DNA of 64,000 nucleotides. Origin: Deltaproteobacteria bacterium ADurb.Bin151. Lineage in GTDB: Bacteria > Desulfobacterota > Syntrophia > Syntrophales > Smithellaceae. The notes below the pieces were generated by a model that worked only from the letters and a program-made list of their open reading frames with translations, was not told where the DNA came from and did no database searches. A program made the translations under genes and the position numbers. The stretch spans positions 7,062 through 71,061 of the forward strand of contig MWDG01000002.1 in assembly GCA_002070455.1 (NCBI GenBank), in the 5' to 3' direction. Shown here in pieces: positions 7,598 to 43,669 of this stretch. How positions within the stretch are numbered: position 1 is the first letter of the stretch; the number at the start of each line of letters is the position of its first letter.

Positions 7598-9109
7598 TCA
7601 CTGCGAAACGTTGAACCGGATCCTGTTTTGTCCGGCAGCCTCATCGTATCGGACAGCTCCTTCTTTTCCGACCCATTCAATCTTTTCCATTATCAGAAGT
7701 TCATCCGGACCGGCATCAACGACGGCCAGGGCTCTGCCACCATTTTTTAGCCTTCCCACCACAACCCCCTGTAACGGATTGCCTGCACTGTCGTGCCGGA
7801 TCACATAGGCCTCAACGAGAAGAGATCCGGATGCCTTTTCCACGGGCACGGGGAGAGCCTGTGCATCGATGGCACGCTGTATCGACGAATCATCCCTGTC
7901 AATCCAGGGGTGGACAGGGGGCGTTCCTGCGTAGATACCTATCGCATGCTTTGTCAGGTACCAGCCGTTAGCCGTCACCATGGCTTTAAGCGCACGGTCT
8001 TTTCTGATGAGCTCGACGACCGTCGCAATGGCATGCATCACATAGTTATTGCCGGGGCCGCCAAAAAAGGGAAGTCCTCCGGTTACGCTCAAGTCCCTCG
8101 GATCGTCATCCGGAATGCCTATCTCTCTCCGGGCAATCTCAAAGGCGGAAGGGAAACAGCTGTAAATATTGAATACACTGATTTCGTCAAGCGTCAGATT
8201 AGCCTGTTGAAGAGCGATGCGTGACGCATGGCATATGGCCGGCGATTTGTGCAAACACGGTCTTCGGGTAACATACCAGATGTCGTTGAAGTCCGCCCCA
8301 CCGATGGGATAAACCCATTTATCACCGGGAATACCAAGGGAGCGCGCAGTGTCCTCCGTGGTCATAATGAGCGCAGCAGACTGATCGACATCGACATTTG
8401 CATTCATGTACTTGGTATAGGGGTATCCAATGTACCGGTTGTCCGGAGACGGCGTAGAGATGATTTCAGCCGACAGTGCATTTTGGGACCACGCAAAGGG
8501 ATTTGTCGAAGCAATCCGGGAAAGACGTTCGAAGGATTCCCCCATGTGTATCCGGTGTTCATCGGGAGATCTGCCGGATGAAGCCCGTAATGATGTCTCA
8601 AACAACGGATACATCAAAGAAGGAAAAAACAGGTTATATGCTTCCTCGATTTTATCCACACCGCTCGTATTCTCGCCGTCGATCCTTTCAGGCGGCTCAC
8701 TGGGCGGCCAGTTCAACGCAAGGGCACCCTTCATGGCACGCTTCAGCGAATAGATGGCTTCCGCTCCGGTCATGAGAACGGCCCTGCAACGGCCCGCTGC
8801 CAGGTCCCTGGCAGCGCTGTTGACCATCATCTGCGGGGTATTGCCCCCGATCGCGAGATAAGAGGCCTGATTCGGCTTGATGCCAAGCCTTTCGGAGAGC
8901 ATCCCGGGTGCGTCACGATAGGACCACTGAAACAAATTCATTACATACACGCAGTCGATGTAATCCTTTAGTTGTAACGCACCTGTATCGATCAATGCAT
9001 CTGAACTTGTTTTTTCCATGAGGCTGAGCGGATCCAGAGGTCGCTCCGTTTTCTTGTGCTGTGTGAATTGTGCTGCACCCACAATGACGGGAGTATAAGA
9101 CATTTGCAT
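7598..9109 (-). CDS. Thiolase-superfamily (SCP-x/acetyl-CoA acetyltransferase-like) protein with extra C-terminal domain
   Basis: 503 aa. Thiolase-like core (GGNTPQ, NIYSCFPSA, GGLPFFGGPGNNYVMH) plus about 110 additional C-terminal residues. Confidence 0.7.
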   Translation of the reverse strand: MQMSYTPVIVGAAQFTQHKKTERPLDPLSLMEKTSSDALIDTGALQLKDYIDCVYVMNLFQWSYRDAPGMLSERLGIKPNQASYLAIGGNTPQMMVNSAARDLAAGRCRAVLMTGAEAIYSLKRAMKGALALNWPPSEPPERIDGENTSGVDKIEEAYNLFFPSLMYPLFETSLRASSGRSPDEHRIHMGESFERLSRIASTNPFAWSQNALSAEIISTPSPDNRYIGYPYTKYMNANVDVDQSAALIMTTEDTARSLGIPGDKWVYPIGGADFNDIWYVTRRPCLHKSPAICHASRIALQQANLTLDEISVFNIYSCFPSAFEIARREIGIPDDDPRDLSVTGGLPFFGGPGNNYVMHAIATVVELIRKDRALKAMVTANGWYLTKHAIGIYAGTPPVHPWIDRDDSSIQRAIDAQALPVPVEKASGSLLVEAYVIRHDSAGNPLQGVVVGRLKNGGRALAVVDAGPDELLIMEKIEWVGKEGAVRYDEAAGQNRIRFNVSQ

Positions 9110-9412
9110 TTCCTTAAAAAAGATTATTTCATCGTCAAAACTGCCGACGCTATTTTTTATATAGCATTAGACAATAACTTCTTTTTATCGAGGAAGATTG
9201 TAATGAAAGTTGAAAGTGTATGCAATGAATAAAAACATATTTCCGGGCGAATCGTGTTTGCCGTGAATCAAAATGCTTTCTTTTAAGAAAAAAACCGGTC
9301 AGGATAATATGTGGGGAATCGTTTTTAGTTGGCAGAGCAAATGAAAATGAGGATGGCGACGGATCTCGTATCCATGTTAACCCCTCAAGGGAGCCAGAAA
9401 ATCCCCTCGTCC

Positions 9413-35872: not shown

Positions 35873-38035
35873 ATGGTCATTTCACTGATTGCCATCGGCC
35901 TGATTTCGATCCTGGGTCAGGTTGTCCTGATCCGGGAATTGAATGTTGCCTTCTATGGCGTCGAACTGATTTATCTCCTTGCTCTGGGAATATGGTTGTT
36001 ATGGACTGCGGCAGGCGCTGTCATCGGGCGGCGGAATCACTTCCCATCACCGGGCCAAGTCGCAGTGCTTTTCATCCTTTTCGGAATCTCCCTCCCGGTG
36101 GATGTAATGTTCATTCGATCCAGTCGTCTCATCTTTGGCGGAGTGCCCGGTGCCTACCTTCCCATCATTTTGCAATTCACCATCGTGGTCGTTTCCCTGC
36201 TTCCGGCGGGATTGCTGTCCGGTCTGCTGTTTCAGTGGGCGGCAAAGACTTACATGAAGGACGGCAGAACCCTTGCTCTTGCCTACGCAATAGAAAGTGC
36301 GGGCGGATTCATCGGCGGATTCGTGTCCACCCTGCTGATCCTGTGGGGGATTCGTAATTTCTCGGCGGTGCTTGTTTGCTCACTCGTATCCGTTATAACG
36401 CCTCTCTTCCTTCTCAAAGGGGTCAGGGGAGTTCTCGTCCGTTCGTCGGTTATCCTTCTTAGCTGTGTCATTCTGCTGCTCCTGTGGAACACTTCCTTGC
36501 TGGACCGCCGGATGACCATGCTGAATCACCCGAACCTGGTGGAAAGCAGCGATTCTCCTTACGGCAGAATCAGTGTTACGCGGCTACACAACCAGATTCC
36601 CGTTTTTGAAAATGACGCCCTGGCGTTTGAAACGGAAGGAACGGAATCCGAATACTTCTGCCATTTAACGGCGCTTCAGCACCCGAATCCGAAGGATGTG
36701 CTGATCCTCGGCGGCGGAATCGAAGGTCTCGTTCGGGAAATGCTGAAATATACTCCCCGGCGGATTGATTATATTGAACTCAACCCCGTCCTGTTCCAGC
36801 TCACCATCCAACATCTCCCTGATGACATCCGCAATTCTCTCGGCAACCCGAAAGTACGGATTGTCTTCGCCGATCCCCGCCGGTATCTGAAAGAAAGCGG
36901 CTCATACGATCTCATTCTGGTCGGAATGCCCCAACCATCCTCGGGCCAGACCAACCGTTTTTACACGCGGGAATTTTTCGAACAATGCCGTGTAAAACTC
37001 AAACCCGGAGGAATTCTGGGCTTGAGGCTCCACACGGCTGAAAACCTGTGGACCGTTCCGCTTGCACGCCGCAACACAAGCATCTACCGGGCCCTGCAGT
37101 CGGTTTTCCCCGCAACACTGTTTCTGCCGGGAAGCACAAACGTTGTCACCGCCTCCGATGTGCCCCTCCCGGAATCTCCGGAAATCATGTTTCGCCGCCT
37201 TCAAAACAGGCAGCCTTCAACAAGATTGATTTCAAAAAGTTACATCGAATACCTTTTCACCAACGACAGATATTACAAAATCAGGGACTTGCTCCATCAT
37301 GAACATGCACCTGCAAACACCGACATCAGACCCGTCTGTTATCCGTATGCCATCATTATCTGGCTTTCACAGTTTTATCCGCGCATCGCCCTGCTTGATC
37401 CCTTTTTCGTGATCGACCGGGGATTTCTAAAATCTTCATGGGTCTGGTTGTCCGGCATTGGGTTCATCATCTTTTTGCTTGTCATTCGCGTTCAGCCCGC
37501 GCTGAAACGAATCATCCTCGTTGCCGCAGCCGGATTTACAGGCATGGTGCTGGAAACCATCCTACTACTGTATTATCAGGTTACGCACGGGGTGCTTTAT
37601 CAGGATATCGGAATTCTGATGATGAGTTTCATGGCAGGTCTTGCTGCAGGCGCAATGGCAATTCACAAAAAGATGTCGGATAGCATGGAGCACAGGCCAT
37701 TCAAGCGTTTGTATGGTGCGTTCTTGCTTATTGGATTCTGTTTTTTATGCGCTTATACAGGAATCACTTTAACCATGGGCAACTCACTTGGCCTGGCCCC
37801 GATTTCATTTCTTCTGGGAGCATCGGGCTTTGCAGTGGGAGGCATTTTTGCCTATGCTAGTATCCATAAAGTAGAAGACCGGATAAAAGTAATTTCCCCG
37901 CTGTATGCCGCCGACCTGATCGGCGGATGTGTCGGCTGCCTGCTTGGCAGCCTCATTTTCATTCCGCTTGCAGGCATGGATGTAACCGCATGGGGACTGT
38001 TTCTCGTTGCGGCGCTTTTGCTCATTCTGGTTTAG
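35873..38035 (+). CDS. Polytopic membrane protein with central spermidine-synthase-like domain (fused MFS/spermidine synthase type)
   Basis: 720 aa. About 7 TM helices, then a class I methyltransferase/aminopropyltransferase-like core (VLILGGGIEGLVREML...IDYIELNP...DLILVGMP), then about 6 more TM helices. It starts 4 nt after the upstream stop. Confidence 0.75.
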   Translation: MVISLIAIGLISILGQVVLIRELNVAFYGVELIYLLALGIWLLWTAAGAVIGRRNHFPSPGQVAVLFILFGISLPVDVMFIRSSRLIFGGVPGAYLPIILQFTIVVVSLLPAGLLSGLLFQWAAKTYMKDGRTLALAYAIESAGGFIGGFVSTLLILWGIRNFSAVLVCSLVSVITPLFLLKGVRGVLVRSSVILLSCVILLLLWNTSLLDRRMTMLNHPNLVESSDSPYGRISVTRLHNQIPVFENDALAFETEGTESEYFCHLTALQHPNPKDVLILGGGIEGLVREMLKYTPRRIDYIELNPVLFQLTIQHLPDDIRNSLGNPKVRIVFADPRRYLKESGSYDLILVGMPQPSSGQTNRFYTREFFEQCRVKLKPGGILGLRLHTAENLWTVPLARRNTSIYRALQSVFPATLFLPGSTNVVTASDVPLPESPEIMFRRLQNRQPSTRLISKSYIEYLFTNDRYYKIRDLLHHEHAPANTDIRPVCYPYAIIIWLSQFYPRIALLDPFFVIDRGFLKSSWVWLSGIGFIIFLLVIRVQPALKRIILVAAAGFTGMVLETILLLYYQVTHGVLYQDIGILMMSFMAGLAAGAMAIHKKMSDSMEHRPFKRLYGAFLLIGFCFLCAYTGITLTMGNSLGLAPISFLLGASGFAVGGIFAYASIHKVEDRIKVISPLYAADLIGGCVGCLLGSLIFIPLAGMDVTAWGLFLVAALLLILV

Positions 38036-38136: not shown

Positions 38137-38556
38137 TCAAATCAGGTCATCGCCCTTCGTCGCCATCATAAATCCGGCATGCTTCACGCTCTTAATGGAT
38201 TTCAATTTCCGATAGAGTTCTTCAATTTGCTTTGGTTTACCCCTTGTCACAATAATCTCAAAACAATTGTGATGATCCAGATGAATATGCTGACTGGACA
38301 GAATGCAGGTATGATAATCATGCTGGACATCCAGCACTTTTGTGACCAGGGCCTTTGCATGATGATCATAAACCAGGGTAATGGCGCCGGTCACCTCCCT
38401 GTTATCCGTCCATTCCTTCTTGATAAGCTCTTCCCGGATCATGTCGCGTATCGCTTCGGATCGGTTCGTATACTTTCTTTGCCTGATCAGACGGTCGAAA
38501 CGCGTCAGCAATTCTTCTTCCAGAGAAACACCGAATCGTACCAGTTTGGAGTTCAT
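38137..38556 (-). CDS. nikR: Nickel-responsive transcriptional regulator NikR
   Basis: 139 aa. N-terminal RHH (RFGVSLEEELLTRFD...YTNRSEAIRDMIR) and a C-terminal metal-site His/Cys cluster (HDYH...HIHLDHHNC). Confidence 0.9.
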   Translation of the reverse strand: MNSKLVRFGVSLEEELLTRFDRLIRQRKYTNRSEAIRDMIREELIKKEWTDNREVTGAITLVYDHHAKALVTKVLDVQHDYHTCILSSQHIHLDHHNCFEIIVTRGKPKQIEELYRKLKSIKSVKHAGFMMATKGDDLI

Positions 38557-38581
38557 CGTTCCTATCCCGAGGTAATATATT

Positions 38582-38635
38582 TTGTTGATATATATAAAAA
38601 AATGAATGAATGGGTCAAGGGATATATTTCAACAA
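38582..38635. promoter_or_regulatory. Large imperfect inverted repeat upstream of nikR
   Basis: TTGTTGATATATAT (38582-38595) pairs with GATATATTTCAACAA (38621-38635). The outer arms TTGTTGA and TCAACAA are perfect. It lies 26-79 nt upstream of the nikR ATG. Confidence 0.3.
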
Positions 38636-38707
38636 ATCTTTTTGGTCATTCAGCAACATTATTGATTGACAACCGCGATATTCTATGTCACGAAAAACTA
38701 ATTCGTA

Positions 38708-38744
38708 GCACGATGACCGCCCGTGCATTTCGCAGTGATCGTGC
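38708..38744. promoter_or_regulatory. Candidate NikR-type operator (10-bp inverted repeat with 17-nt spacer) upstream of the TonB receptor gene
   Basis: GCACGATGAC (38708-38717), 17-nt spacer, GTGATCGTGC (38735-38744). 9 of 10 positions are complementary. It ends 38 nt before ATG 38783. The geometry resembles the E. coli NikR site (6-bp half-sites, N16). Confidence 0.35.
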
Positions 38745-38782
38745 CTCATGAGAATAATTCATTTTTCCTGCAAAGGGTCATT

Positions 38783-40738
38783 ATGATGAAGTGTCGGTTC
38801 TGGGGTCCGCTGTGCCTGTTTGCTTTGCTCTTTTTTCAATATCCGGCGTTTACCGCGGATCAAAAGTCTGAAGATCCTGTCCGGATGGAAGAAGTAGTGG
38901 TGGTGGCATCACCGATTATCGAAGGAAACCGGGTGACCCATTCGGGAAATCAGGTCACCATCGTCAGTAAAAAACAAATCGACGATTTAAATGCTCAGGA
39001 TCTGCCTTCGGCGCTCAGGCGCACGCCCGGCATAAACATTTCGCGCCACAATTTCGTAGGAAGCTTCGGCGGCGGCGATGGCGGCGCGATATACATTCGA
39101 GGCATGGGAAGTTCCCGTCCCGGCGCGGAAATCCAAATGCTGGTGGACGGGGTTCCGAAATTTGCCGGCATCTGGACTCACCCCCTGATGGATATCATGA
39201 GCGTGGATATCGCCGATCGAATCGATATAACAAAAGGTGCCCAGCCGGTCCTGTTTGGCAACATGACAGCCGGAGCAGTCAATATCATCACCAAAACGCA
39301 AAAAGAAGACGGCTTCTCAACCAGCATTCGCGGTGCGGCAGGTTCTTACCATACATGGATTGAAAGTATTGAGCATGGCGGAAAAATCAGGAATACGGAC
39401 TATTATCTTCTCCAAAGCTTCAAACAGTCCAGAGGCCACAGGGAAAATGCGGGAGGAGAGCTTCAGAATTACTTTGGACACATCGGCCATCAACTTTCCG
39501 ACAAGTGGAAGATTTCAGTTACAGCCAATGCAACCCATAACTCCGCTGACGATCCGGGGCCGGAGAACCGCCCGCAGGAGAGGCAGGGAACTTTTAAAAC
39601 GGAAGACTATCTGGGCATTGCCACCCTTTCGCATGCCTATGGCATTGTTCAGGGTGACTGGAAGGTATACTGGAATAACGGCATAGCCAGATGGACGGAT
39701 CAGTATGACCTTGCCGATCATTTTTATTACGATACAATTACCAAATTTGACAATTACGGGATTCGGGCGCGTGAAGCCATCCAGCCCTGGACAGGCGGAA
39801 CTTTCACGGTCGGGGCCGACTGGGACTGCACATCCGGAACGGTGACCATCAACAGGGGACTGCTCCGACAGGACAGCTACTTCTCACGTGATACATTCCG
39901 CATTCTGTCTCCCTTTTTTTTACTGGGACACGAATTCAATCTCATCAAGGAATGGAAATTGATTCCCTCGGCGGGCGTTCGTTACTACAACCACAGCGAC
40001 TTCGACGCCCGCTGGGCGCCTCAGGCAGGAATTGTTCTGAAAGATTCTCTTACAGACCTTCATCTGTTTTACGGCCGGGGAGTCAATTATCCTGGGCTTT
40101 ACGTCGTCGCCCAATCCAATATGCTCTGGAGGGGCAATACACGCTGGAAAGACCTAGACCCGGAAACCGTTGATCACCTGGAAGCGGGGATCGGCCGCTT
40201 TTTGGGCCCTAAAACCCGGATCGATCTGACCTGGTTCTACGATAAAGGCAGCAATCGCCTGATTATTATTACCAGCCCGGCTCCGCCTCATTATGAAAAT
40301 ATCGCGAACTTTGAAACGCAGGGACTGGAGGCAACCCTCTCCGTCGAACCGATTCAAAACCTGTCCCTGTTTACTGGAGGCACCTGGCTTTATAAACGCT
40401 CTCCGGACAATCTGCCTTATGCGCCTGAGTGGACTGCTTCAGCCGGCGGCAACCTGCGGCTTTTCCGATATCTGAAAATCAGTCTGGATACCACCTACCA
40501 GAATTCCCAATACGTCGCCAATAACCGTAACCTGAATTATGGAACCAGCATCTCAAAGATTGACGGATTCTGGATTTTAAACGGGAAAATCAGCTGGGAG
40601 TTCAACCTGCCGAAGCCTGCACTGACGGGAGAAGTTTATCTGGCAGGAGAAAATCTGACCAATGTCCATTATGCATACAAGAAAGATTATCCCATGCCCG
40701 GCATTAACTGCCTCCTGGGCGTGAATATCAGGTTTTAA
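38783..40738 (+). CDS. TonB-dependent outer-membrane receptor
   Basis: Signal peptide, TonB-box-like EEVVVVAS, plug-domain motifs (GINISRHNF...IRGMG), and a barrel ending ...GVNIRF. Start taken at ATG 38783 (MMKCRF). Confidence 0.9.
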   Translation: MMKCRFWGPLCLFALLFFQYPAFTADQKSEDPVRMEEVVVVASPIIEGNRVTHSGNQVTIVSKKQIDDLNAQDLPSALRRTPGINISRHNFVGSFGGGDGGAIYIRGMGSSRPGAEIQMLVDGVPKFAGIWTHPLMDIMSVDIADRIDITKGAQPVLFGNMTAGAVNIITKTQKEDGFSTSIRGAAGSYHTWIESIEHGGKIRNTDYYLLQSFKQSRGHRENAGGELQNYFGHIGHQLSDKWKISVTANATHNSADDPGPENRPQERQGTFKTEDYLGIATLSHAYGIVQGDWKVYWNNGIARWTDQYDLADHFYYDTITKFDNYGIRAREAIQPWTGGTFTVGADWDCTSGTVTINRGLLRQDSYFSRDTFRILSPFFLLGHEFNLIKEWKLIPSAGVRYYNHSDFDARWAPQAGIVLKDSLTDLHLFYGRGVNYPGLYVVAQSNMLWRGNTRWKDLDPETVDHLEAGIGRFLGPKTRIDLTWFYDKGSNRLIIITSPAPPHYENIANFETQGLEATLSVEPIQNLSLFTGGTWLYKRSPDNLPYAPEWTASAGGNLRLFRYLKISLDTTYQNSQYVANNRNLNYGTSISKIDGFWILNGKISWEFNLPKPALTGEVYLAGENLTNVHYAYKKDYPMPGINCLLGVNIRF

Positions 40739-40752
40739 ACTATGGAAACGGA

Positions 40753-41379
40753 ATGCCTATGCAGGAAGTGATCTTCGACTCAGCCAGGGAAAAATTCTTC
40801 GATGAATTTTCCAACAGATGGGACCAAAGCGGACCGTCACCCGCAACCGATGTGGTGCTGACCTTTCTGCGGAAACTGCACATTGATTCGGCCAAAACCG
40901 TGCTGGATGTAGGAACAGGGACCGGTTTGCTGATTCCGCACATTTTTTCCTTTCATCCGGCCAGGGTCATCGCCCTGGATTTGTCGGCAGGCATGCTGGA
41001 AAAACTGCGGGAAAAGCATTCCACCCGGTTCGGCGCCGGACTGGTGATTCTGCAGGGTGATGTCCATTTGCTGAATCTGCCCGATACCACCGTGGACGTT
41101 GCCGTTTGCAACGGCGTTTATCCGCATTTCCGCGATAAATCTCTGGCGTTGTCCCAACTGCACCGCGTGCTGAAAAAGCGGGGCGTTCTGGCCGTCAACC
41201 ATTTTGCCGGAAGGGAATTCATCAACAGCATTCACGGATCCTCCTCTCACGATCTGATCCGTCAGGACCTGCTGGATCCCGCAGCGACCTTGTCTGAAAC
41301 CATTGCCGGTTACGGATTCCATGTCAAAGAGCTGCGCGACGACACAAACGAATTTTATGTGATCGCGGAGAAAATATGA
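40753..41379 (+). CDS. Class I SAM-dependent methyltransferase
   Basis: 208 aa. Motif I VLDVGTGTGLL and motif post-I ALDLSAGML, of the Methyltransf_11 type. Overlaps the next gene by 4 nt. Confidence 0.8.
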   Translation: MPMQEVIFDSAREKFFDEFSNRWDQSGPSPATDVVLTFLRKLHIDSAKTVLDVGTGTGLLIPHIFSFHPARVIALDLSAGMLEKLREKHSTRFGAGLVILQGDVHLLNLPDTTVDVAVCNGVYPHFRDKSLALSQLHRVLKKRGVLAVNHFAGREFINSIHGSSSHDLIRQDLLDPAATLSETIAGYGFHVKELRDDTNEFYVIAEKI

Positions 41380-42059
41380 CGCGGGAGGCAGTCGTCGAAA
41401 TTCATGGACTCATTGCCGGTTACGGCCGTCATCAGGTATTAAACAAACTGGATTTAACGGTTCGGCAAGGCGAAGCCCTGGGCATTGCGGGAGATAACGG
41501 AACAGGCAAAACAACCCTGTTCAAGGTCATTCTGGGTTTGATTGCGCCCATGGAGGGTAATGTGCGTTTGCAGGGACAGGAACTGGACACTCCCCGTTTG
41601 CGCAGGCTAATGAGATGCCGGATCGGATATGTGCCACAGTTGTATACACCGGGGAAAATGCCTGTCTCCGTACATGATGCCGTTCTCATGGGAAGATGGA
41701 GCATGGGGTTCGGTTTTTTCAAGAGCCCGACGGTGCAGGACCGTCAGAAAGTAAGCGAGATTCTCCAGGAAGTAGGAATGTCTCACAAGGAATGGCAACC
41801 GGTGCATCTTCTCTCCGGCGGAGAGCAGCAGAAGGTATCTATTGGACGCGCGCTGGTTCGTGAAGCGCCGATCCTGCTTATGGATGAACCCAGCACCTAT
41901 CTGGATCACGCATCACAGGCGGAAATCATCGAACTGATCCGAACCATTCAATTGAAACATCACCTGACACTGATCATGATCAGTCACGATCCGGAGCACC
42001 TGGAGGCAATGAGTGACCGCATTCTTTTATTGAAAAACGGCCGATTGGAAGAACGATAA
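41376..42059 (+). CDS. Metal ABC transporter ATP-binding protein (ZnuC/TroB-like)
   Basis: Walker A GDNGTGKTT, signature LSGGEQQKV, Walker B ILLMDEP. Confidence 0.9.
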   Translation: MTREAVVEIHGLIAGYGRHQVLNKLDLTVRQGEALGIAGDNGTGKTTLFKVILGLIAPMEGNVRLQGQELDTPRLRRLMRCRIGYVPQLYTPGKMPVSVHDAVLMGRWSMGFGFFKSPTVQDRQKVSEILQEVGMSHKEWQPVHLLSGGEQQKVSIGRALVREAPILLMDEPSTYLDHASQAEIIELIRTIQLKHHLTLIMISHDPEHLEAMSDRILLLKNGRLEER

Positions 42060-42881
42060 ATGTCTTTATATGATTTTCTGACCATCCCCCTGTTTCAAAA
42101 GGCCTTGCTTGCCGCCTTTCTTTCCGGCGCAGGGCTCTCTTTGCTGGGTGTGGTTATTTTAAACCTCAACCTGACGACAATCCGCTTCGCCCTTATGCAT
42201 ATTGCTCTGCTCGGCGCTGCGATTGCGATGGTTCTCGGGCTTTCACCCCTGGCGGGCGCCATAGCGGGAATACTCCTGGCATCCCTGCTGCTCGGTCCCG
42301 CAGGCGATTTTTTAAACATGGATACCGGTGTCAGCGGCGTGCTTTTCATGACCGGGTCTCTGGGTCTGGCTTTCCTGATATTTTACAAAGCCGGCGTTCC
42401 GGCAATGGATGCCTTTGCTCTTTTTTCCGGCAGTATCCTCGCCCTGAACACACTGGAGATCTGGGTGATCGGGGGGCTTGCCGTTTTGATCATTCTCATC
42501 TTCTTATTTTTTTACCGTGAAATCCAGATGGTGTTGTTTAATCAGGAAGTAGCCGAAAGCCTGGGCGTTCCGGCCAAACAGATTCGCAACGCACTTTTAT
42601 TGCTGACCGGCCTGGCCATTGGCGTCAATATCCGTATGGTCGGGGTTTTGCTGATTGATGCCGCGGTTCTCCTTCCTGCCATTGCGGCGCTCTCCATTGC
42701 CAAAAGCCTCCGCGGTGCGTTAATGCTTTCCGCCTTTTTCGGCATTGTTTCGCAGGTGGGAGGAGTCGCCTTTTCCATGGCTTATGATTGCCCCAGCGGC
42801 GCCAGCATCACGATTGCCGCGGTGCTGATGGTTTGTCTGGCCGCAATTTACGGCCATATCGTAAAATCTTTCAGGAGATGA
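42060..42881 (+). CDS. Metal ABC transporter permease (ABC-3/ZnuB-like)
   Basis: 273 aa, about 8 TM helices. The start codon abuts the preceding stop codon. Confidence 0.85.
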   Translation: MSLYDFLTIPLFQKALLAAFLSGAGLSLLGVVILNLNLTTIRFALMHIALLGAAIAMVLGLSPLAGAIAGILLASLLLGPAGDFLNMDTGVSGVLFMTGSLGLAFLIFYKAGVPAMDAFALFSGSILALNTLEIWVIGGLAVLIILIFLFFYREIQMVLFNQEVAESLGVPAKQIRNALLLLTGLAIGVNIRMVGVLLIDAAVLLPAIAALSIAKSLRGALMLSAFFGIVSQVGGVAFSMAYDCPSGASITIAAVLMVCLAAIYGHIVKSFRR

Positions 42882-43669
42882 ATCCGTCCATGAACATATT
42901 TAAAAAACCTTTTTTCCCCGTTTTATGCTTTCTTTGGATTGTCTTGTCCGTTTTGCTTTCCGCCGGTGCGACAAAAGCTGATGATAAAGTCATTGTTGTA
43001 GCCTCAACCAGCTGGACGGGCGCCATTGCGGAAGCTGCCGGCGCTGATGAAATCCGCATTCTGGCACCGTTTGAATTGAAGCATCCCCCGGAATATGACT
43101 ATCGGCCGTCGGATATCGCCCGGTTGCGTTTCGCAAGCCTGCTGGTTTACGGCGGCTATGAACCATTTGTTAAAAAACTCGCCGTTGCCGCCGGTTTGTC
43201 CCCGGATAAAATGATGGTTATTGTTACCAGCAACAACCCCGACAATCTGAAAAAACAGGCGAGGCTTTTGGCCGAAAAATTAGGAACTCAAAAAAAGGAA
43301 GCCGTCTGGGAAAAATCTTTCGACAAAGTATTGGCTGATATTCAAAAGCAGGCGCAAAAAAATAATGTCAGGCAAAAAAGAGTTCTGGTGCAGAAATATC
43401 AGGTCCCCTTTGTTAAATGGCTGGGATTTGACATCATCGGCGTTTTTAGCGCGGATGAGTTAAGTCCGAACAAAGTAATGCAATATGCCCGAATGAAACC
43501 CGACATGATCATCGATAATTTTCATAATCCCCAGGGAAAGCCGATTGCTGAAATCACCGGATGTGGTTACGTGGGCTTGATCAATTTCCCTTCGTCCAAT
43601 GCGCGCACCCTGATCGAATTGATGAAGGAAAACGCGGAAAGACTTGGCTTGATGGCTCATCATCCATAA
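42878..43669 (+). CDS. Metal ABC transporter periplasmic substrate-binding protein (cluster A-I/TroA-ZnuA-like)
   Basis: ATGA overlap with the permease stop. Signal peptide, then VIVVASTSWTGAIAEAAG...HPPEYDYRPSDI...LLVYGGYEPF. Start is 42878 or 42890. Confidence 0.78.
   Translation: MNPSMNIFKKPFFPVLCFLWIVLSVLLSAGATKADDKVIVVASTSWTGAIAEAAGADEIRILAPFELKHPPEYDYRPSDIARLRFASLLVYGGYEPFVKKLAVAAGLSPDKMMVIVTSNNPDNLKKQARLLAEKLGTQKKEAVWEKSFDKVLADIQKQAQKNNVRQKRVLVQKYQVPFVKWLGFDIIGVFSADELSPNKVMQYARMKPDMIIDNFHNPQGKPIAEITGCGYVGLINFPSSNARTLIELMKENAERLGLMAHHP

Follow-up and report, generated by a model that had tools for sequence, protein, structure and literature searches.

The 64,000-nt stretch of DNA analysed here (hereafter the window), from the genome of a member of the Smithellaceae, Deltaproteobacteria bacterium ADurb.Bin151, contains at positions 38137-43669 a nikR gene divergent from five plus-strand genes, which encode a TonB-dependent outer-membrane receptor, a class I methyltransferase (MT) dependent on S-adenosylmethionine (SAM) and the three components of an ATP-binding cassette (ABC) importer, i.e. 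an ATPase, an ABC-3 permease and a substrate-binding protein (SBP) with the ZnuA fold. We consider it highly probable that this operon is a NikR-repressed nickel uptake system, nickel being the cargo that we infer, and there are good grounds to regard the MT as a functional partner of transport, in part because ATGA overlaps couple the genes. The reading as a whole, in which the MT of this TonB-dependent nickel operon acts on the cargo at its cytoplasmic exit, is plausible but falls somewhat short of being probable.

Hydrogenases, CO dehydrogenase and the LarA cofactor depend on nickel, as does the F430 of partner methanogens, and among the additives of biogas reactors nickel is known to be limiting. 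To our knowledge, the way in which anaerobes of sediments and digesters acquire it at trace levels is only partly understood. The locus and its relatives would represent an importer class assembled from zinc-type parts and wired to NikR. The MT family that accompanies it comprises more than 1000 sequence clusters and goes along with five architectures of nickel importer, in some cases as a fusion to the permease.

Gene content of the nikR-linked operon

Genes were called from the open reading frame listing combined with Pfam and NCBIfam searches, and the gene set and domains agree with those given in a preliminary description of this DNA:

38137-38556, minus strand: nikR, predicted nickel-responsive repressor of 139 amino acids with ribbon-helix-helix (RHH) and NikR_C domains
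38783-40738, plus strand: TonB-dependent outer-membrane receptor of 651 amino acids with a Plug domain
40753-41379, plus strand: class I SAM methyltransferase (MT) of 208 amino acids with no signal peptide
41376-42059, plus strand: ABC ATPase of the ZnuC/AztA type (PF00005)
42060-42881, plus strand: ABC-3 family permease (PF00950)
42878-43669, plus strand: exported SBP of the cluster A-I fold; alternative start at 42890

Direct reading of the sequence also bore out the tight junctions described before. The MT and ATPase genes share an ATGA overlap at 41376, as do the permease and SBP genes at 42878; the TAA of the ATPase gene abuts the ATG of the permease gene (42057-42062), and the receptor and MT genes are separated by a 14-nt gap. 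Low-depth contigs of the locus are present in four metatranscriptome runs from two studies, and single RNA-library contigs span the receptor-MT, MT-ATPase and permease-SBP junctions; being assemblies that do not show strand or ends and that possibly derive from DNA, they weakly support co-transcription of the operon.

The assignment of the repressor is firm at the level of domain profiles: NikR_C (PF08753) scores 95.5 bits and RHH_1 (PF01402) 36.8 bits, and the NCBIfam equivalog NF003381 is matched with 173.4 bits against a cut-off of 105. It is the sole NikR_C gene in the genome. Its metal-site motif HIHLDHHNC, with HDYH upstream (sequence HDYHTCILSSQHIHLDHHNC), fits, when read by eye, the ligand pattern of the high-affinity Ni site, i.e. 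H-x-H-x5-C plus a His of the neighbouring chain; the comparison was made with the ligands H87, H89, C95 and H76 of Escherichia coli NikR.

The receptor carries a Plug domain (PF07715, 67.4 bits, residues 55-166), a signal peptide, a TonB-box-like EEVVVVAS near the mature N-terminus and a C-terminal Phe. For a putative 22-stranded C-terminal beta-barrel, matches to PF14905 (18.7 bits) and, partially, to TIGR01783 (91 bits) both stay below cut-off; the length of 651 residues and the terminal Phe fit such a barrel. The sole match among Protein Data Bank (PDB) sequences is a generic TonB-linked receptor (9gbc, 36 bits). In seven other Thermodesulfobacteriota genomes, a relative sharing 40-45% identity with it is encoded immediately 5' of an MT-family gene. 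It is one of two Plug-domain proteins in its own genome; the gene for the other TonB receptor (G000:C133:3186-5433) adjoins a weak match to an ABC-3/FecCD-like permease and possibly belongs to a cobalamin or iron-chelate system.

Among the importer components, the ATPase (PF00005, 111.7 bits) has AztA as its best NCBIfam match (147 bits, below cut-off), and the permease (PF00950, 116.6 bits) likewise matches AztB and ZnuB below their cut-offs. The SBP is the most divergent of the three: the ZnuA-type domain PF01297 is recognized at 30.8 bits and in the N-terminal lobe only. Its AlphaFold2 (AF2) model, with a mean predicted local distance difference test (pLDDT) value of 87.9, shows a two-lobe cluster A-I fold with a long helix at residues 138-161, and the top 50 PDB matches found with Foldseek are all A-I metal-binding proteins (E ~1e-11, TM 0.62-0.66), the leading folds being ZnuA, YfeA, PsaA, MntC and AztC. 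In a profile alignment that is confident for the first ligand position only, the SBP lacks the canonical His/His/His(Glu)/Asp ligand set, and an invariant Pro70 aligns with His60 of ZnuA and His67 of PsaA. The family has motifs of its own, [H/C]-P-[P/G]-[E/H]-Y-D, Q175, D213-N214 and N236-F-P, with Y73, D74, P121, W181, D213, N214, N236, F237 and P238 invariant and Q175 nearly so; Gln175, Asp213-Asn214 and Asn236-Phe-Pro are conserved where A-I proteins usually have His, Glu or Asp. A site built with amide side chains may suit a small metal-ligand complex better than a bare ion. A nickel tetrapyrrole such as F430 was weighed as a possible cargo but discarded, A-I binding proteins having small buried sites. 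Salvage of the nickel-pincer cofactor was also entertained as a possibility.

The importer hence shares its permease family (PF00950), ATPase type and SBP fold with ZnuABC, PsaABC, MntABC, YfeABCD, TroABCD and AztABCD, but it differs from these cluster A-I systems in the low ZnuA score of its SBP, in the Pro at the place of the first canonical His, in the motifs specific to the family, in its linkage to NikR and in its MT partner, which in some lineages is fused to the permease.

The methyltransferase family and its genomic contexts

The MT is a class I SAM methyltransferase (Methyltransf_11, PF08241, 70 bits), and its AF2 model (pLDDT 93) finds class I methyltransferase folds at E ~1e-14. No NCBIfam equivalog is reached at its cut-off (score/cut-off: BioC 62.7/185, DVU_1556 59.5/155, UbiE 51/158, ArsM 42/263, CpaM 40/180), and a protein atlas returned generic methyltransferase clusters only. 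It does not match the radical SAM domain PF04055 and, with one Cys in the whole protein, has no CxxxCxxC motif. The family to which it belongs, however, is well defined and large: an exhaustive profile search (E <= 1e-30) gathered at least 1155 clusters at 50% identity, and homologues at 46-55% identity occur in Bacillota. Its signature consists of F16, W23, D52-x-G-x-G-x-G58, D76, C119, P124-H125-F126, H150, N158 and H161, all of these positions being invariant across 69 members drawn from all contexts. They include the SAM motif (D52, G54, G56, G58 and D76) and the residues C119, H125, H150 and H161. The latter four fall after strands 4 and 5, the substrate-binding position of class I enzymes, and a further Cys149 is present in many members; H125 aligns with the catalytic His of phosphoethanolamine N-methyltransferases. 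The protein would thus combine an intact SAM site with an invariant Cys/His3 putative pocket where the substrate is expected.

The preliminary description had presented the MT as an odd gene embedded in a metal uptake operon. A co-occurrence survey leads to the opposite view, as the MT turned out to be, of all the partners of this importer class, the one conserved most widely. When 185,579 species genomes were scanned with a pattern, 62 MT loci were obtained, and in about 50 of these 62 the MT gene adjoins homologues of the ATPase, permease and SBP genes of the window. The MT gene comes first in Smithellaceae and Bacillota and stands at the end in Chloroflexota, Hydrogenedentota and Nitrospirales, and in Smithellaceae the unit comprises just the five genes and nikR. 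Sampling of a further 400 genomes from each of two phyla, that of the window and a Bacillota-type one, revealed receptor-MT pairs lacking ABC-3 genes, with receptors 40-45% identical to that of the window. Together with a variant operon of the order receptor-FmdE-second MT-Peripla_BP_2-FecCD-ATPase-MT, with NikABCDE-type operons having the MT as the last gene and with pairs of an energy-coupling factor (ECF) S-component and an MT, this brings the importer types found beside the MT to five (ABC-3, FecCD, Nik/Opp, ECF S-component and TonB receptor alone).

An even closer association is provided by gene fusion. In at least seven clusters the MT forms the C-terminal part of a fusion with an ABC-3 permease, with the signature kept in all; these fusion clusters share 33-41% full-length identity with one another and range from Chloroflexi to Odinarchaeota. 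They came to light in the exhaustive profile search and a follow-up of its longer hits; a search with the window MT alone had returned no fused forms of greater length. Because the MT follows five importer architectures and is fused to permeases, it may be expected to act on the imported cargo at the cytoplasmic exit of the transporter.

Several further arrangements of the MT deserve mention. In the receptor/FecCD/MT variant (L110:2420-9562, L102:3413-10544, L098:10889-11599; L numbers designate comparison loci), FmdE-domain proteins with a C-terminal DksA/TraR zinc ribbon are accompanied by a second, unrelated class I methyltransferase. In Nitrospirales and Hydrogenedentota, a DUF1559/prepilin-type (N_methyl) protein heads the SBP-ATPase-permease-MT operon (L050:4532-5497, L052:4578-5543; also L056, L058 and L060), occupying the position taken by the TonB receptor in Smithella. 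Other fusions of the MT, each seen once or twice, involve TM1506/DUF1893, Maf, DUF4198 and a second MT domain (records P0114, P0073, P0171, P0095, P0055, P0102 and P0197); DUF4198 is a NikK-like periplasmic domain, and its fusion to the MT may be a gene-calling artefact.

A phylogeny of 69 MTs, inferred with FastTree and rooted at the midpoint, places the Smithellaceae MTs (support 0.99) within a Bacillota clade (0.995), with L014/L015 as the sister group (0.81), and assigns the remaining Thermodesulfobacteriota MTs to a distant clade. Because of this nesting, and because the permease is 74% identical between the Smithellaceae and Bacillota phyla, the MT-ABC block was probably acquired horizontally. 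It then probably became linked to the receptor gene, relatives of which are paired with the other MT clade in the same phylum.

Candidate NikR operator and the identity of the metal

The spacer between nikR and the receptor gene is 226 nt long. The nikR-receptor spacers of 11 Smithellaceae loci were aligned, and inverted repeats were tested against 300 dinucleotide-preserving shuffles. The following features are discussed:

38581-38636, no strand assigned: AT-rich inverted repeat TTTGTTGATATATAT-N26-ATATATTTCAACAAA, the second operator candidate of the preliminary description
38666-38671, plus strand: TTGACA hexamer, invariant across 11/11 Smithellaceae loci
38685-38711, no strand assigned: candidate NikR operator aTGtCAC-N13-GTAgCAC
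38708-38744, no strand assigned: GC palindrome GCACGATGACCGC...GCAGTGATCGTGC, the first operator candidate of the preliminary description

Invariant alignment columns sit in three places, namely a block at 38612-38632, the TTGACA hexamer and the box at 38685-38711, in which the columns TG.CAC ... TCGT..CAC are kept. The signal predicted for delta-proteobacterial NikR is GTGTTAC-N13/14-GTAACAC (Rodionov et al. 2004, PMC545781, Table 4); the 27-bp box agrees with it at 11 of 14 positions and closely resembles the variant GTGccAC-N13-GTAACAC reported for Desulfuromonas (PMC545781). The local motif occurs in a single copy in the genome. The 11/14 match carries no weight by itself, because sites with two or three mismatches to the consensus arise at chance frequency, both genome-wide and across the loci; the weight of the box rests on its conservation, its position and the independent loci described below, and with these taken together it is a probable NikR operator. 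A second three-mismatch match lies in the window at 36465-36492, within a spermidine-synthase-like gene, and is consistent with chance.

Neither of the two palindromes previously put forward as operators withstood the comparison of orthologous spacers, which favours the box instead. The AT-rich repeat has 15-nt arms (38581-38595 and 38622-38636) matching at 93%, a value reached by none of the 300 shuffles, but among the aligned loci the inverted repeat is confined to the window and the two loci closest to it (L002 and L010), and its role as an operator is not supported on that ground. Its right arm runs into the conserved block GGGTCAAG.GATATATTTCAA at 38612-38632, possibly a part of the nikR promoter. 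The GC palindrome (13-nt arms at 38708-38720 and 38732-38744, 85% match), whose left arm shares bases with the right half-site of the NikR box, is not supported either, because it is at chance level (99 of the 300 shuffles gave a 10-nt arm with nine matches, and 40 gave a 13-nt arm with 11 or more) and because its sequence and register change between loci. As RNA it would fold at -15.8 kcal/mol (z = -2.6), and an inverted repeat of varying sequence and register is found 3' of the box in 10 of the 11 Smithellaceae loci (z from -0.4 to -2.9); a 5'-untranslated-region hairpin or a secondary site may be present here.

The invariant TTGACA may serve as a -35 element; a promoter scan revealed no canonical -10 element at 16-18 nt from it, and a sigma-70 scan of the spacer gave one weak candidate (TTCGCA-18-AATAAT), no better than shuffles. 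An Rfam scan of the locus at E <= 1 returned no match and hence no known riboswitch in the leader.

Loci outside the Smithellaceae supply independent evidence for NikR control. In L105, from another family of Thermodesulfobacteriota, nikR is followed by the box GTGTTAC-N13-GTAGCAC and this in turn by an operon of the order exbB-exbD-tonB-receptor-SBP-ATPase-permease-MT. Operons of the order MT-ATPase-permease-SBP in Bacillota have a box GTAACAC-N13-GTAAYAC just upstream; this pattern, derived from the Bacillota sites after they were seen, matches 10 times in 695 kb of loci, all 10 just upstream of MT or ABC genes, and has no match in the window's own genome. A further case is the 'nickel island' L017:4395-14134, also from Bacillota, where a perfect GTGTTAC-N13-GTAACAC precedes nikM (with PDGLE), followed by nikR and then by a boxed hypA-MT pair in which hypA lies directly upstream of the MT gene; a cassette of MerR, aldo-keto reductase and Fe-dependent alcohol dehydrogenase genes splits the module, and a second box precedes ATPase-permease-SBP, so that both halves of the module are boxed. 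ECF S-component/MT pairs, too, are preceded by a box, in reversed form and either perfect (L149) or with one mismatch (L147). Altogether, the MT operons with a NikR box in front of them span three transporter classes and two phyla. In four loci of one Bacillota group (L018:386-560, L019:7802-7980, L020:7804-7980 and L024:7803-7980) the NikR-like box and the start codon of the MT gene are about 170 nt apart, the interval being a GC-rich, conserved leader that contains GGAGCCGATCGATTCATGGGCC and may be a structured leader or a small open reading frame.

The NikR regulons predicted earlier for delta-proteobacteria comprise nikMNQO/nikKMLQO and hydAB (Rodionov et al. 2004, PMC545781). The window shares with them the repressor family, the operator architecture and the half-sites, but in place of the ECF-type NikMNQO transporter it has a TonB receptor, a ZnuABC-like importer and the MT. 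The window's genome, estimated to be 96.7% complete, contains no CbiM/NikM gene, and its sole match to NicO of the NiCoT family is below the Pfam cut-off; HypA, a LarA-like gene and TonB genes are present.

The alternative that the operon is a second Zn/Mn/Fe or cobalt importer located beside nikR by chance, with the MT an unrelated member of the regulon such as a metal-independent isozyme, appears highly improbable to us, although it has some points in its favour. All the transporter parts come from Zn/Mn/Fe-type families, and related modules are found behind other metal regulators, in Dehalococcoidia one of the Fur family, accompanied by a small HNxEH protein, and in one Bacillota locus one of the DtxR family. 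In addition, cbiM genes and cobalamin riboswitches are often found nearby. On the other hand, the genome already has a canonical znuA-znuC-znuB operon on another contig (C5; ZnuA 241 bits, ABC-3 permease 201 bits), the first canonical His of ZnuA/PsaA is replaced by the invariant Pro, hypA and nikM adjoin the MT module in L017, NikR boxes stand before MT operons as described above, and the linkage of MT and importer, fusions included, is too consistent for a mere passenger of the regulon.

In the Dehalococcoidia modules (L026:3813-8600, L031:4423-8588, L042:4475-8603) the order is Fur-family regulator, small helical protein and SBP-ATPase-permease-MT, the regulator having an HHHH-x-C motif and the helical protein, of 72-83 amino acids, the motif WIEHNxEH; in L026 and L036 a membrane methyltransferase of the ICMT/PEMT type stands ahead of the SBP gene. 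In 5 of 28 scanned loci, MT-importer modules have cobalamin riboswitches no more than a few kb away:

L014: 13896-14090
L015: 11159-11344 and 14384-14566
L100: 7620-7814
L102: 11426-11626
L144: 7739-7924

The genes that they control are neighbours of the btu or cbiM type rather than the MT operon itself, and their proximity may reflect a clustering of cobalt/B12 and nickel uptake genes.

The linkage to NikR and nickel as the best candidate metal thus stand as the preliminary description had them, with control moved from its two palindromes to the box.

Possible roles of the methyltransferase

We picture the system as follows. When cytoplasmic nickel is low, NikR would leave the aTGtCAC-N13-GTAgCAC box and the five genes would be transcribed together. 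The receptor would carry nickel over the outer membrane, probably as a small chelate rather than as the bare ion, and the A-I SBP, with its replaced Zn/Mn ligands, would hand the cargo to the ABC-3 permease and the ATPase. At the exit of the permease, the cytoplasmic MT would methylate a donor group of the imported ligand or complex, and this would release the nickel or make its uptake irreversible. That the MT methylates a donor group of an imported nickel ligand is a proposal we make tentatively. More speculative still is its extension to anaerobes of many phyla, which might share a SAM-dependent step of nickel acquisition in which an MT with a Cys/His3 pocket, docked on the importer or fused to it, methylates the ligand or complex; if this is true, a widely used, still-to-be-found nickelophore would exist in anoxic habitats, together with a new way of freeing a metal from its carrier.

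A number of considerations weigh against this reading. All of its support is computational, and the evidence for co-transcription is limited by the DNA that the RNA contigs may include. The box matches the consensus at only 11 of 14 positions, which is chance level genome-wide at that stringency, and the scans did not place the promoter and the transcription start. As for the metal, a search of the 96.7%-complete genome for a [NiFe]-hydrogenase large subunit (PF00374) gave no match; lineages may differ in the metal, because the same module sits behind Fur- and DtxR-family regulators elsewhere, and cobalt is conceivable because several loci have cobalamin riboswitches and cbiM genes in their vicinity. 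Large chelates would normally not fit into an A-I binding pocket. Finally, the fold search with the MT gave generic class I matches that offered no clue to its substrate.

The metal-site-like residues also admit a different interpretation, which we regard as unlikely, namely that the MT-fold protein is a nickel acceptor or chaperone, whose Cys/His3 pocket would receive Ni(II) from the permease, or a sensor or gate of the trans-inhibition type, which would close the transporter on binding Ni; SAM binding would then be structural or regulatory. The invariant C119, H125, H150 and H161, joined in many members by Cys149, resemble a transition-metal site, hypA directly adjoins the MT gene in L017, and the MT is fused at the permease C-terminus, where regulatory domains of ABC importers sit. 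The invariance of the full SAM signature (D52, G54, G56, G58 and D76) in 69 members nevertheless argues for catalysis, and the MT also pairs with outer-membrane receptors alone, where there is no inner-membrane transporter to regulate. Either outcome would be of interest: an MT that modifies the cargo would mean a new chemistry in metal uptake and point to a nickel chelator yet to be identified, and an MT that accepts the metal or acts as a gate would be a new use of the methyltransferase fold.

Methylation of the cargo has its nearest analogy in anaerobic heme uptake. The SAM-dependent methyltransferases ChuW, HutW and HmuW are encoded in TonB/ABC heme-uptake operons and are reported to free the metal from the imported chelate (PMC10404700, PMC10114669). 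They resemble the MT in standing within a chelate-uptake operon, but ChuW, HutW and HmuW are class C radical SAM enzymes acting on heme, whereas the window MT is a 208-residue class I protein with a nickel-linked cargo. On the side of uptake, the counterpart is Helicobacter pylori, in which TonB-dependent nickel uptake via FrpB4 and FecA3, with ExbB/ExbD/TonB, is repressed by NikR (PMC11247825). As in the window, the outer-membrane receptor for nickel is under NikR control there, and its ExbB/ExbD/TonB have a parallel in the exbB-exbD-tonB genes of the L105 operon; H. pylori differs in using NixA or NiuBDE for the inner-membrane step instead of an ABC-3 system, and in having no methyltransferase (PMC11247825). 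NikR-controlled TonB-dependent nickel uptake is already established from Helicobacter. Full-text literature searches found no paper assigning a role to an MT inside such an operon, in agreement with the preliminary description, and none on a nickel importer of the ZnuABC type that has a class I methyltransferase.

The MT might, alternatively, make or tailor a simple secreted nickelophore by methylating a common metabolite, with the receptor and the ABC importer serving re-import. This seems rather improbable to us, even though metallophore loci usually place synthesis beside uptake genes. In the staphylopine and pseudopaline loci, SAM-using enzymes are encoded beside the importers. In the genus of L098 the receptor-MT pair is followed by an ABC-2 exporter and a class IV aminotransferase, and several loci and fusions contain tandem or second MTs. 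Across more than 100 loci examined, however, no exporter or further biosynthetic gene is conserved, the Smithellaceae unit is confined to the five genes and nikR, and fusion of the MT to the permease suits processing after import better than synthesis for export. The opine metallophore systems (staphylopine Cnt, pseudopaline CntOLMI) are similar to the window in combining a receptor/ABC importer with a SAM-using Rossmann-fold enzyme and in the Cnt loci serving the uptake of nickel/zinc chelates, but CntL, CntM and the exporter are absent from the window operon, as judged by Pfam for its six genes, and no CntL or CntM domains were found among the conserved neighbours of the MT loci. SAM is presumed to be the methyl donor of the window MT, and by analogy with the opine systems the donation of an aminobutyrate group is also possible.

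Two minor observations concern the integrity of MT genes and their surroundings. About 10 genomes of the Bacillota-type phylum (G461, G659, G591, G516, G663, G487, G451, G517, G518 and G567) have a single in-frame stop (TAA, TAG or TGA) within the MT match; it may lie in read-through before the true start, and pseudogenes or recoding are also possible. In L099, group II intron domain fragments (RF02001) are located at 8758-9151, directly downstream of a receptor-MT pair.

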